Source of the DNA: Syntrophobacterales bacterium
GTDB lineage: Bacteria > Desulfobacterota > Desulfobaccia > Desulfobaccales > 0-14-0-80-60-11
Length of the DNA stretch: 64,000 nucleotides
NCBI GenBank assembly: GCA_037388025.1
Contig: JARRKO010000039.1
Span: forward strand, 10,295 to 74,294
Reading direction: 5' to 3'
Position numbers and translations under genes: made by a program. Of the stretch, positions 15,417 through 23,306 are shown one piece after another; the first letter of the stretch is position 1; each line of letters begins with the position of its first letter. A model generated the notes under the pieces. The model saw only the letters and a list, made by a program, of their open reading frames with translations, did no database searches and was not told where the DNA came from.

Positions 15417-17333
15417 TTAACCCTTGACCAGGGCCTCGGCCACATAGGAGTCGGTGATAAGGACATTAAAGAAGCGCCCTTTGAGGCAAGCCCGGATAGC
15501 CTCGGTTTTCTCAACCCCTCCGGCCACGGCTATGATGAATTTGTTTTCCTGAGCCGCCTTTTCACGTAATTCCGGGGCCATAACGCCGATGATGCGGTCG
15601 GTCAGGGCCGCGAGGTCCTTGTCTTTTTTACCGATCAGGGGTTCCCCTTGAACATTGATGGGCGTATGGTTGATCTCCGCCACCACGCCTTTGGCGGCCA
15701 ACTGCTCGGCGCTCAGGTTTAATTCCTGCTGGGCCAGAGCCATGAAGCCCGGCTTATCCACCGCCAGGTGGCCGATGGCCAGGAGCATAATGTCCACGTC
15801 CCAAATGTCCTGATAAATCTTCTGGAGTTCCGGGTTGGCCTTGATTTGCGCTTCGTATTCCTTCCGGGAGGTGACGGGCATGGAGGGCAGATTATAGGCG
15901 ATGGCGTCCGGATATTTGGTGCTCATCATGCCCACTAAAGCATTGCTGGTCAGTCCCGGCATAAAGAAGATACGGGTCAGAGATAGCGGATAAATGTGTG
16001 GGTTGCTGAGCCGCTCCTGCTCCAGATACGTGACCAAGTAATACAAGGTTTTGCCGCAGGAGATGCCGATCTTGATGCCGTCCCAGGCGACTTCCTGGAC
16101 ATAATGGGCAGCCTCCCGGGCTATGGTCTTTTGCACCGCTTCGAAATCCTTGATCCCGGGATCCACCACCCTGATCTCCTTGAGATGCGGATACATTTTA
16201 TAAAGTTCGTCCTCCAGATCGGAACGCCGCGGGATAGCCGACTTCTCGAAAATAAAAGCCATGACCTGGGGCAGCGTGGTGTATTCCATTTCATGGAGAC
16301 CCAGCCGGTGCGGCTCAAAAGGTCCATGGCGACGCATGTAAGTGGCTACTTCGCTGGCCTGCCTCCGGGCATCGTCATAGGCCACATCGGAGAACAGGTC
16401 CACCGGCCCGATGAGTTTGCCTTCGCAGAGCTGGTACCCAGCGGCGATGACCCGGGGCGGCCCGTCAAAGCGGATGGGCCGGGCGTCGGCAAAGGAAACC
16501 GGCATCAAGGGGCCGTTGTGGGAACCCCGCATCCAGCCCTCTACCAAGTGCGGAAAAGCAAAGGGCTCCAATACCTCACCCACCGCGGGAAAACCGGACT
16601 GGGAGCGCACTATGAGCACCGGGTCGTCTTTACCCACATAGCGGCCGGCGATGAGGCCTAGTTTTTGAGAGGACGCCACCGAGACAATCTCGTTATCCTT
16701 TTTCCGGTAGACGCTCTCGATGAGGTATCTGGATGATGCCCCGATGAGGACCAGCATGTCGTACATGTCTTCCGGACAGGAGAGTATCCATTCCTTGTCT
16801 TCAAATACGTCCAGGATCCGGAAGCGGAAACCCCGGTGCATGGAAGGGTCGATGACCAACCCAGGGGTATTGAAGGGATCGGCGAACATTTTAAAGAGCG
16901 GCAGGTTCCAGGCCCCGGGCGAAGTCTTGTCCGCCATGAAAATGATCACCGGCTCACTCTTGCGCTCCACGAAGCTCAATTCCGCCACGCCAGGCCCCAT
17001 GCCTTTGACATTGCCCGAGAAAGCGTCGGCCAGCATATCCTGCCCGGCCCCATAAAGCTTCATGCGTTTGGCCAGTTCAGTGAGGTCCAAAAAGGTGTCC
17101 CAGGCGAACTGATGGGTTTCCAGATTGTCTACGCCCCGGTGGTGGGTCATGACCAGTTCCACGTCATCGCCGACATGAAGCGCATGACCGTCCACCAGGA
17201 AGCCCCGTTTCACGGCATCATCCAGGTGTTTTTGCGCCAGAGCCAGCATGTCCGGGTGAGACGAGCTGTGCCCCACCCAACCGCCGACGTCTGCTTTGAT
17301 AACCGATAGCGTGATTTTTTTCTCAGTTGCCAT
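15417..17333 (-). CDS. fbp: Fructose-1,6-bisphosphate aldolase/phosphatase (class V FBPase) fused to a C-terminal SorC/CggR-type sugar-phosphate-binding domain
   Basis: Residues about 1-365 match the archaeal-type FBPA/P nearly motif for motif (ITLSVIKADVGG..GH, MADKTSPGAWNLPL, MEYTTLP). Residues about 375-638 carry SorC sugar-binding text (IGISCGKTLYYL..., IIAVAGGVEKTEAIRACLKGRFFNVLITD). One uninterrupted 638-aa ORF. Confidence 0.85.
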   Translation of the reverse strand: MATEKKITLSVIKADVGGWVGHSSSHPDMLALAQKHLDDAVKRGFLVDGHALHVGDDVELVMTHHRGVDNLETHQFAWDTFLDLTELAKRMKLYGAGQDMLADAFSGNVKGMGPGVAELSFVERKSEPVIIFMADKTSPGAWNLPLFKMFADPFNTPGLVIDPSMHRGFRFRILDVFEDKEWILSCPEDMYDMLVLIGASSRYLIESVYRKKDNEIVSVASSQKLGLIAGRYVGKDDPVLIVRSQSGFPAVGEVLEPFAFPHLVEGWMRGSHNGPLMPVSFADARPIRFDGPPRVIAAGYQLCEGKLIGPVDLFSDVAYDDARRQASEVATYMRRHGPFEPHRLGLHEMEYTTLPQVMAFIFEKSAIPRRSDLEDELYKMYPHLKEIRVVDPGIKDFEAVQKTIAREAAHYVQEVAWDGIKIGISCGKTLYYLVTYLEQERLSNPHIYPLSLTRIFFMPGLTSNALVGMMSTKYPDAIAYNLPSMPVTSRKEYEAQIKANPELQKIYQDIWDVDIMLLAIGHLAVDKPGFMALAQQELNLSAEQLAAKGVVAEINHTPINVQGEPLIGKKDKDLAALTDRIIGVMAPELREKAAQENKFIIAVAGGVEKTEAIRACLKGRFFNVLITDSYVAEALVKG

Positions 17334-19770: not shown

Positions 19771-20478
19771 ATGGGTCCCCCGGCTCTCCTGGATAAAACG
19801 TACAACACCATAATCACTAAACTGGTGGAAACCGGCCAAGCCCCTCATTATACCGAGATTGCCTCGGCATTGGGGGTCTCTATGGAAGAGGGCCGCAGGG
19901 CTCTCCATGAACTGATGTCCGCCGGTGTGCTGGGCATGTGGCTGTTTCCGGATACGGATTATATCAGCAGCTTTGCGCCCTTTAGCAACCTCCCCACCCA
20001 GTATCGCCTCACCATAGCGGGTGAACAAAAATGGTTCGCCCAGTGAGGTTTCGAGGCGCTGGCAGTATGCTGGCTTTTTCCCGGCAAACCAGTGCAGATC
20101 ACCGCTCCTTGCCTTGATTGTGGCTTACCGCTGCAGGTGGAGATGCAAGACGGCCGGGTCATAACCACCACTCCGGAGGGCATCATTGCTTATGTGGCCA
20201 TCCCCTTCTCCCGATGGCTGGAGCGGCTGCCCCATGCCTGAAGCACCATGAATCTCTTCCGGTCGGAAGAGCATATCCGGAACTGGGCTCAATTTGATCC
20301 CGCCACCGAGGAAGGCATTCTGCCACTGGCAGACCTGGTGAAGATATTTTCCGGCAATTTTTTCCGCCAACGGCTGGACCCGGATTACGCGTCCCAGAGT
20401 AAACAATACCTGGGTGAATTTCTGGCAGAGATCGCGGCAGTTGCCAAAACGCGGCCTTTTTGGCGACTAAGGCCATAA
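19771..20478 (+). CDS. MerB-family (alkylmercury/organomercurial lyase-like) protein, predicted selenoprotein with two in-frame UGA codons (20044-20046, 20239-20241)
   Basis: Track ORFs 19771-20046 and 20248-20478 and the unlisted stretch between them share one frame, interrupted only by two TGA codons. AAGGAGG SD lies 8 nt before 19771; there is none before 20248. Merged 235-aa product: wHTH N-terminus, WFAQ-U-GFEAL (compare MerB YAWC96ALD99TL) and PHA-U-STMNLFRS..W (compare SFC159CHVHFFAS..W). Hairpins follow both TGAs. Confidence 0.6.
20058..20074 (+). promoter_or_regulatory. SECIS-like hairpin 1 (moderate)
   Basis: GCUGGC-AGUAU-GCUGGC: 6 bp including two G-U pairs. Begins 11 nt after UGA 20044-20046. 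The loop contains GU. Confidence 0.4.
20254..20271 (+). promoter_or_regulatory. SECIS-like hairpin 2 (strong)
   Basis: CUCUUCC-GGUC-GGAAGAG: perfect 7-bp stem with a GGUC tetraloop. Begins 12 nt after UGA 20239-20241. Confidence 0.65.
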
Positions 20479-20636: not shown

Positions 20637-21667
20637 ATGCGAGCCATCACTGGTCAACTAACACCTGAAATTTCAGAATTTATTGGTAAACTTTCAGTTG
20701 CCAAAGCCGATGCATTTCCGGTGTCATCGTTTCAAGAAATTATGCGTCTTGTCGCACGATTATCATATATGAATAAAGACCTAAAATTTATAGAGGAGAC
20801 CGTGTTAAACGTATTGAAATGGATATAAGGTTTGACAGGCTGTCGCGGGCTTCTCAGAGACTATCTGATTATCTTGAAACTGAGGGGCTCGAAGGATATC
20901 AAGATGTAAAACGCCGCCGTTATATTCAATGGAGTATCATACAACACTACGAGGTTTGCCCAACCCCTTTCCTCGACCTAACACATTCACTAAGAGTAGC
21001 TTGTTCTTTTGCTTTCCTTGACGCAGAGGATTTTGATCCTTATGTTTTCGTATTTGGCCTCCCATACATGACTAATAGAATATCTATTAACTCTGAGCAT
21101 GATATCATTAACGTTCGCCTTTTAAGTATTTGTCCACCTGACGCTTTTAGACCTTACTACCAAGAAGGTTACTTAGTAGGTACCGATGAAATTACCAATG
21201 AATATACTGATAAAACAGAATTAGATTTTAACAGACGTTTAATTGCAAAATTTAAACTTAATAAAGAACATTTTTGGGAGGAAGGTTTTGATGCTATACC
21301 ACAATCTGCGCTATATCCAGATGGAGATCGTGTTAAAGCTATTTGTGAACAAATAGTAATTTATTCTGATACAGAAATCGGACCAGAAATCCTCGGTAGA
21401 TTTCTTCAAGAATGGACTGATATAGAGAATCTCGTGTTAAGCTTTGCCCGCCAGAGGCGGGATAAAGTGTACTCAATCCGGGAAGCTATTAACTTTTTGT
21501 CAAGAGCTGAGATTCTATCATCTGATGTCCAAGAAAGACTCACAAATCTTAGACAATTAAGAAATCGTGTAGTTCACTACCCAAAAGAATTGAACGTTCA
21601 AGATTTGGCAAATGGATTTGACGAAATAGCCAATTTAAAAAATAAATTAAAAAAATTGCATTTTTAA
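20637..21667 (+). CDS. FRG-domain protein with C-terminal HepT-like HEPN domain; apparent -1 frameshift near 20783-20786
   Basis: AT-rich. FRG core IIQHYEVCPTPFLDLTHSLRVACSFAF and RPYYQEGYL. The name-giving motif (KIYRGD) lies in-frame upstream of ATG 20819 but after a stop; it continues the 63-aa ORF 20637-20828 if a -1 shift occurs at CTAAAATTT. The C-terminus has LRQLRNRVVHY (Rx4H, HepT/DUF86-like). Confidence 0.6.
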
Positions 21668-22796: not shown

Positions 22797-23306
22797 ATGA
22801 ATATTAAAAAGCTCGATGAAAAAAGGCAGTTGGAATTTTACGCGGTTCTCTATTTCATCCGGGATCAGCGGAAACATCACCACAGGTGGTTAATATTCAA
22901 AGAATTTTCCGACCCGCCCAATCCGGACACCTATTGCTGGCTCAACGGCGAACAGGTGGGCATCGAGGTGACCCACCTCTGCGGCAACAATCACGATGCC
23001 AAAAACGCGCTGGGGAAGCTGAATAACGGAGAGAATTTGGAAGGGAACAAGCAGCAGCCGGTGCCGCCCGGGTCCATGAACAACCGCCTTCCCCATGAAC
23101 TGAACCGGATTTTGGAGTATAAAGCCAAGCACCACTACGGCGACAAGACTTGGCTGGTGATTCGCAATACCTACCCGCTCTGGGAGAAAGGTGATTTCGA
23201 ACGCTACCGGGGCGACATTAAAGTGCCCCGCCAGCACGCGTTTGAGGAAATTTGGTTGGTCTGCGATCCGGTGGCCGCGTCGGGAACTATCCGCCTTTAC
23301 CCGTAA
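22797..23306 (+). CDS. Hypothetical protein (possible PD-(D/E)xK-like core, weak)
   Basis: 169-aa ORF in a lower-GC patch. PD...(13 aa)...GIEVT resembles a nuclease-fold motif, but the Lys is not conserved. Confidence 0.45.
   Translation: MNIKKLDEKRQLEFYAVLYFIRDQRKHHHRWLIFKEFSDPPNPDTYCWLNGEQVGIEVTHLCGNNHDAKNALGKLNNGENLEGNKQQPVPPGSMNNRLPHELNRILEYKAKHHYGDKTWLVIRNTYPLWEKGDFERYRGDIKVPRQHAFEEIWLVCDPVAASGTIRLYP

Follow-up and report, generated by a model that had tools for sequence, protein, structure and literature searches.

We found that the gene at 20637-21667 of the window (the whole 64,000-nt stretch of DNA analysed here) is probably a recently pseudogenised, horizontally acquired copy of a stand-alone two-domain conflict gene. 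The lesion, located between Asp48 and Pro71, is a net deletion of 67 nt, or 22 codons and one further base. An intact member of the family consists of an N-terminal FRG core of ~270 aa followed by a C-terminal divergent HEPN domain with the Rx4H RNase motif. The deletion took out the strand with the invariant F-R-G-Q and shifted the frame, leaving a 63-aa and a 282-aa ORF.

The locus and its 67-nt deletion

The locus is read as two overlapping ORFs on the + strand, one frame apart, namely ORF1 (20637-20828, 63 aa, frame 0) and ORF2 (20819-21667, 282 aa, frame 2). Direct reading of the sequence placed a TAA at 20774-20776 and an A4 run at 20783-20786, and the peptides quoted in an earlier, sequence-only reading of this DNA (IIQHYEVCPTPFLDLTHSLRVACSFAF, RPYYQEGYL, LRQLRNRVVHY and IYRGD, the last in frame 2 after the TAA) were all found. 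The features of the locus were as follows.

20637..20780 (+), 5' remnant of the FRG-HEPN gene in frame 0, family codons 1-48 (MRAITGQLT...SYMNKD), from HMM and tblastn
20778..20782 (+), deletion junction, where GAC (Asp48) abuts CCT (Pro71) and the C at 20780 is common to both
20781..20828 (+), out-of-frame tail of ORF1, LKFIEETVLNVLKWI and its stop, without family homology; the frame-0 HMM match stops at NKD
20780..21667 (+), 3' remnant in frame 2, family positions 71-366 (PKIYRGDRV...KKLHF and the stop); HMM 484.8 bits, positions 70-364
20786..21037 (+), surviving part of Pfam FRG (PF08867), including QWSIIQHYEVCPTPFLDLTHSLRVACSFA, residues 51-134 of the joined protein, 34.6 bits
21161..21169 (+), Q-E-G of RPYYQEGYL, conserved columns in the family alignments
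21380..21664 (+, start approximate), C-terminal helical HEPN-type domain, from HepT-like, DUF4145 and HepT-like_2, PDB profile and Foldseek matches
21560..21577 (+), intact HEPN Rx4H motif R-N-R-V-V-H, read from the sequence; R, N and H at least 90% conserved in 53 homologues

The 3' remnant encloses both ORF2 (ATG 20819) and a 293-aa CDS annotated by NCBI. The product of this CDS (P0001, from a Syntrophobacterales MAG) is named 'FRG domain-containing protein', is 100% identical and begins MYRGD; the CDS begins at a non-canonical ATT at 20786 and its record carries no pseudogene flag.

At 0.368, the GC content of the gene is far below that of the whole window (0.574) and of the 5-kb flanks (0.56/0.61), which bears out the earlier statement that the gene is much more AT-rich than its neighbours. 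The window copy was acquired horizontally and its composition is foreign. It is flanked by a MerB-like gene and a metallophosphoesterase, in agreement with the earlier observation that neither an MNT-type antitoxin nor any other partner lies adjacent, and the high-GC housekeeping neighbours further include a class V fructose-1,6-bisphosphatase, a DUF1573 protein, HisB, HflX and a pterin-binding protein. Because its neighbours are of this kind, the FRG-HEPN remnant is a solitary foreign insert outside any defence island. Nothing convincing was found when flanking repeats, tRNA-type landmarks and target-site duplications were sought around the AT-rich insert, and a promoter and terminator scan of the locus gave nothing above shuffled expectation.

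Several observations were made on the surrounding genes. The MerB-like (alkylmercury lyase) frame at 19771-20478 (+) contains two in-frame TGA codons, at 20044-20046 and 20239-20241; when TGA was read as Cys the frame scored 74 bits on Pfam MerB with both positions spanned, and a hairpin starts 12-15 nt after each TGA, neither being more stable than shuffled sequence. This frame is probably a selenoprotein with two selenocysteines, whose positions may correspond to the catalytic cysteines of MerB. A 169-aa ORF lies at 22797-23306 (+), one gene away from the remnant. Its GC content, about 0.45-0.51, is below that of its surroundings and it has no Pfam or PADLOC match; it, too, may be a small gene of foreign origin. 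The fructose-1,6-bisphosphatase is encoded by one 638-aa ORF at 15417-17333 (-) and combines the class V domain (FBPase_3, 590 bits) with a C-terminal SorC-type sugar-binding domain (104 bits).

The lesion was defined by comparison with intact homologues, which are ~366 aa long (about 360-380), are 46-62% identical to the joined query and span 99-100% of it. Alignment to 14 of them revealed that the window copy lacks the 22 residues YLLFFRGQxxDYRNKAGASTFY: where the homologues read ...LNKD-YLLFFRGQxxDYRNKAGASTFY-PSIYRG(D/E)R..., the window copy runs from NKD directly onto P-K-IYRGD. When the family HMM was applied to the three reading frames of the window gene, positions 1-50 were matched only in frame 0 and positions 70-364 only in frame 2, while positions 51-69 were unmatched in all three. 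Likewise, in tblastn the stretch 20637-20780 corresponded to homologue residues 1-48 and the stretch 20780-21664 to residues 71-366, the single C at 20780 being common to both, and the DNA of the homologues at two other loci (L001 and L067) holds 22 codons between NKD and PSIYRG. Neither the missing peptide nor a second copy of the gene was detected elsewhere in the window by tblastn. The loss of 67 nt thus changes the frame and shortens the product. The sequence-only reading had proposed a -1 slip at the A4 run and had taken a repaired protein of ~344 aa (343 aa here) as the intact form. Alignment, HMM and tblastn all show 67 nt to be missing, which rules out a slip of one nucleotide at A4, be it a frameshift or a homopolymer error; intact members are ~366 aa long. 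The other option offered at that time, a recently inactivated gene, was right in that the gene is disrupted, by the 67-nt deletion.

The deleted stretch holds R54, G55, Q56, N62 and Y70, each invariant in 53 homologues. LKIYRGD had previously been taken as the family-defining motif; the real FRG motif is LLFFRGQ, which in intact homologues lies 20 residues upstream of a second conserved motif, IYRG(D/E), and is deleted here. Its Arg is invariant across 130 broader FRG proteins, and in both of our structural models the motif forms a beta strand (E50-56; E56-62) that is part of the domain core. Since this strand has been deleted, neither ribosomal slippage nor correction of a homopolymer error can yield a normal protein. 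Outside the gap the gene is well kept: 44 of the 51 family-invariant columns are retained in the window copy, six of the others falling in the deletion and one being a conservative L to I change, and its HMM score of 1.57 bits per residue compares with a mean of 1.38 for intact loci, the HMM having been built from the closest relatives and so favouring the window copy. Such good preservation outside the deletion means that the break happened recently or, with lower probability, arose in the assembly. No convincing repeats that could explain the deletion were found at the site.

A survey of 80 species-representative loci bore on how the locus should be interpreted. The gene was intact at 65 of them, split at five (each at a site of its own), truncated at two, and naturally without the HEPN tail at eight, which form a clade in Dysgonomonas. 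The sequence-only reading had considered that relatives might carry only decayed copies, which is at odds with the 65 intact loci. With broken or truncated copies at 7 of the 80 loci (about 9%), decay is normal for the FRG-HEPN family, and this weighs against the alternative in which the organism carries a whole gene and the 67 nt were lost only in assembly or consensus calling. An artefact of that kind would agree with the origin of the sequence from a MAG contig and with the lack of further damage outside the gap; however, a clean 67-nt loss is atypical of homopolymer or base-calling error, no collapsible repeat flanks the site, and the exact 23-mer to the left of the junction had 0 matches in the metagenome collection, where no alternative allele was found. 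We consider an artefact improbable.

Somewhat less probable still is that ORF2 (282 aa from ATG 20819, or 293 aa from ATT 20786) encodes a functional, N-terminally truncated protein with an active HEPN RNase. A truncated product could still be made, since the frame is open, the ORF2 start overlaps the ORF1 stop (ATGGATATAA) in a way that would permit translational coupling, and NCBI annotates a 293-aa CDS; moreover, the conserved residues outside the deletion are kept, including RNRVVH. Yet the ~80 missing N-terminal residues take in one helix and two or more core strands of a compact domain, and among the 80 loci and the representatives listed no homologue starts there as a conserved form. 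No convincing promoter or ribosome-binding site was found before ORF2, and selection would presumably act against a HEPN toxin that is unregulated and has no partner. Programmed -1 ribosomal frameshifting at the A4/T3 run, giving a working 343-aa protein, was effectively refuted by the alignment. Although a -1 shift anywhere in 20777-20786 gives one continuous ORF and re-pairing of tRNA-Lys on A_AAA is conceivable, the 22 invariant-rich residues with FRG remain absent from the joined product, A_AAA_TTT is not an X_XXY_YYZ heptamer in frame, and the intact relatives have one uninterrupted ORF, with none of the split copies broken at the same site. A recent pseudogene of foreign origin remains our preferred reading of the locus.

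Domain identities of the FRG-HEPN protein

Joining the two frames gave a 343-aa protein that scored 34.6 bits on Pfam FRG (30.6 for ORF2 alone; cut-off 25), and joining moved the start of the match from profile position 53 to position 4, its end staying at 93, so the profile search upheld the earlier FRG call. All 53 of the 53 homologues matched the same family. The FRG core, QWSxxQHY...TP.LD.T.S.RVA.SFA, lies at 20928-21010 in the window copy, which keeps the Q, H, Y, T and D that never vary among 130 sequences; the name-giving N-terminal (F/Y)-R-G motif is absent. The window copy is a member of the FRG family by descent that has lost the FRG motif.

The HEPN profiles gave sub-threshold scores on the joined protein: 21.6 for HepT-like (cut-off 23.5), 18.9 for DUF4145 (23.1) and 25 for NCBIfam HepT_toxin (60). 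The matches to HepT-like, DUF4145 and HepT-like_2 fell on residues about 255-341. At E<=10, HepT-like was matched by 47 of the 53 homologues and DUF4145 by 40, again sub-threshold but consistent, and there were scattered homologue matches to the RiboL-PSP, Swt1 and Cthe2314 HEPN families. Both DUF86 and DUF4145 belong to the HEPN superfamily (PMC3710099). When the family profile was compared with the PDB, the HepT toxins 6m6w and 5yep were matched (E 0.047) and aligned exactly on RNxxxH, the region of the window motif RNRVVH aligning with LRNIAVH of HepT 6m6w. An AlphaFold model of an intact homologue (P0003) reached a pLDDT of 79.6, with 85-93 in the C-terminal blocks, and in Foldseek its 16 consecutive top matches were HepT/HEPN structures (probability up to 1.00, target TM-score 0.44-0.57, best E-value 0.059). 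The earlier HEPN call was sustained by the consistent profiles and by the HepT structures at the top of the Foldseek list: the C-terminus forms a HEPN domain that is divergent but retains RNxxxH intact.

Conservation in the family peaks in the stretch TNRISxNSEHD...RLLSICPPDALRPYFQEG, which corresponds to residues 168-208 of P0003 (model m091b464a9625), where the pLDDT was <50 with a shallow alignment of 53 sequences; its equivalent in the model of an FRG-only relative, built with 130 more diverse sequences, was confident (>90).

The closest known counterparts of the C-terminal ~95 residues, by both sequence and structure, were HepT (DUF86) toxins of type VII HepT-MntA systems, such as Shewanella SO_3166 (PDB 5yep, 6m6w), with which they share the helical HEPN fold and RNxxxH. 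The scores are nevertheless below the family cut-offs, and the HEPN domain here ends a larger protein whereas HepT is a toxin of ~130 aa. In contrast to HepT-MntA, no MNT nucleotidyltransferase neighbour was present in the window or at the surveyed loci. Nor is there conservation of the Tyr AMPylated by MntA, which we take to be Tyr104 of SO_3166 (from the 6m6w/7bxo work): the residue after the motif His varies (E/D/H/Q/N/S/R/Y) and is followed by Pro (HEP, HDP, HQP, HNP and others; HYP in the window). With no MNT neighbour and no conserved Tyr beside the motif, the window gene is not a HepT-MntA system. A likeness in layout is offered by DUF4145-type and effector-fused HEPN proteins of abortive-infection and R-M contexts, which join HEPN and a conflict module in one polypeptide and are MNT-independent. 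Effector-fused HEPN proteins were surveyed by Anantharaman et al. 2013 (PMC3710099), and FRG is not among the fusions given there; nor is an FRG-HEPN fusion described in the sources read, PMC9503650 and PMC3710099.

The FRG core was further considered as a possible ADP-ribosyltransferase (ART). In the only proposal on mechanism that we found, from the Aravind group (Iyer et al. 2022, PMC9503650, citing Burroughs & Aravind 2020), Frg is placed in the ART superfamily as a possible NADase-type anti-viral effector of prokaryotic immunity. An FRG-only relative modelled from the 130-sequence alignment gave a pLDDT of 94.7 and a pTM of 0.92, and its Foldseek list against the PDB was led by ARTs, namely pertussis toxin S1, rifampin ART Arr, CARDS toxin, pierisin and PARP1/2; pertussis toxin S1 held rank 1 at a non-significant best E of 0.016 (probability up to 0.10). 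The conserved residues of FRG proteins, R of FRG on a strand, T-x-S at the end of a strand before a helix and Q-E before a strand, form a pattern that appears to fit an R-S-E-type ART. Across the broad FRG family, the Q of RPYYQEGYL is invariant and its E and G reach 90% conservation or more, and this Glu would be a candidate catalytic residue if FRG is ART-like. Homologues had no Pfam ART match even at E<=10, FRG matched no solved PDB structure by sequence, a BFVD viral fold search returned nothing, and PHROGs gave one weak match to a family of unknown function. The R-S-E-type pattern and the ARTs at the top of the Foldseek list are what FRG shares with the Frg clade of the ART superfamily; the similarity is statistically weak here and the assignment a prediction, which the fold search weakly supports.

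The FRG-HEPN family and its neighbourhoods

More than 2,400 homologues were found by protein search. Clustering at 50% identity gave 972 clusters with E<=1e-3 and at least 400 with E<=1e-30, and genomic matches came from Proteobacteria, Bacteroidota, Chloroflexota, Acidobacteriota, Planctomycetota, Actinomycetes, Nitrospira, Firmicutes, Leptospira and others. Gene GC was below flank GC at 62 of 74 loci, with a median difference of -0.044. All-vs-all BLAST of the neighbours within 4 kb at the 80 loci revealed only lineage-specific synteny, in Dysgonomonas. There was no conserved partner gene, as no Pfam or PADLOC family occurred more than three times among 136 immediate neighbours, and no neighbour recurred in 73 loci.

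Defence-type genes were nonetheless frequent around the relatives. They comprised ThsA/ThsB, SIR2 and TIR-SEFIR genes, DNA methyltransferases, PIN/Phd, HicB and RiboL-PSP HEPN genes, and further mads, PD-Lambda-3, PDC-S32, BrxA, GajB, RT/DRT, Cas1, AbiJ and Ymh; all of these are mixed with housekeeping genes, and the scan was made without a background control. The sequence-only reading had suggested that FRG-HEPN neighbourhoods be surveyed for defence-island enrichment, and many defence-type neighbours were seen. FRG-HEPN is a stand-alone, patchily distributed, usually low-GC gene that is often beside defence genes. The earlier description of the window gene as a conflict effector stood as to the class of gene, which is of conflict or defence type, and failed as to the copy at hand, which is broken by the 67-nt deletion.

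These properties resemble those of PDC-S15, a candidate single-gene system with an FRG domain, no fixed partner, low GC and variable, often defence-rich surroundings. The PADLOC models of PDC-S15 matched the window protein at a best E of 4.8e-10 and the intact P0003 at 1.7e-8, with partial coverage in both cases. Unlike PDC-S15, the FRG-HEPN subfamily has an extra C-terminal HEPN domain, and the window copy lacks the FRG motif. Since the model matches are weak and partial, the subfamily appears from sequence to be a distant relative of PDC-S15 and not a modelled member. PDC-S15 is itself a candidate system only, and the mentions of it that we found are correlative.

Many relatives consist of the FRG core only (about 275 aa), and their abundance suggests that the core can work by itself. 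In Dysgonomonas (L071, L073, L075, L080, L081, L083, L084 and L086) the FRG-core-only genes encode 266-287 aa and always lie directly downstream of a gene for a 208-aa protein that by its sequence resembles an RNase H with an N-terminal dsRNA/hybrid-binding domain. This pairing is likely to be plain synteny within one genus. Two other relatives differ at the C-terminus: P0190 carries a DpnII restriction-endonuclease-like module in the place of HEPN (Pfam 3.5e-20), and P0136 shows a D...E-A-K pattern that, by eye only, is PD-(D/E)xK nuclease-like. The C-terminal slot therefore appears exchangeable for DNases (DpnII-like in P0190, possibly PD-(D/E)xK in P0136), and with C-terminal nuclease modules exchangeable in this way a regulator-plus-effector layout fits. 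FRG may thus act as a sensor or regulator, as the sequence-only reading had supposed.

Proposed function and significance

We propose that intact FRG-HEPN would act as a single-polypeptide effector of the abortive-infection type. Its HEPN tail would cleave RNA, probably as a dimer by analogy with other HEPN RNases, and the FRG core, with its arginine on the first core strand of a predicted NAD+-using ART domain, may consume NAD+, transfer from it, or gate the RNase. The window copy would no longer perform this role. A more specific scheme, which we put forward as speculative and unlikely, is that intact FRG-HEPN couples NAD+-dependent chemistry directly to RNA cleavage as a defence within a single polypeptide, of which the window copy would be a fossil. 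Such coupling could take either of two forms: an ART-like FRG might ADP-ribosylate or otherwise mark the RNA ends left by its own HEPN RNase, whereby repair would be blocked, or FRG might use NAD+ or ADP-ribose turnover to gate the RNase.

For the host genome the locus amounts to one decayed acquired gene among housekeeping genes, and is of little consequence. The window copy is an ordinary dead gene belonging to a known but uncharacterised family, and it represents no new kind of system. With regard to annotation, the 293-aa 'FRG domain-containing protein' should carry a pseudogene flag, or at least a flag that the FRG motif is absent. The wider interest lies with the family. FRG-HEPN is large, mostly intact and partner-less, and sequence conservation points to candidate catalytic residues in both of its domains; intact members are therefore reasonable single-gene anti-phage candidates. 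The FRG-core model, with its pLDDT of 94.7, together with the weak ART-like fold matches, provides concrete residues for mutation.
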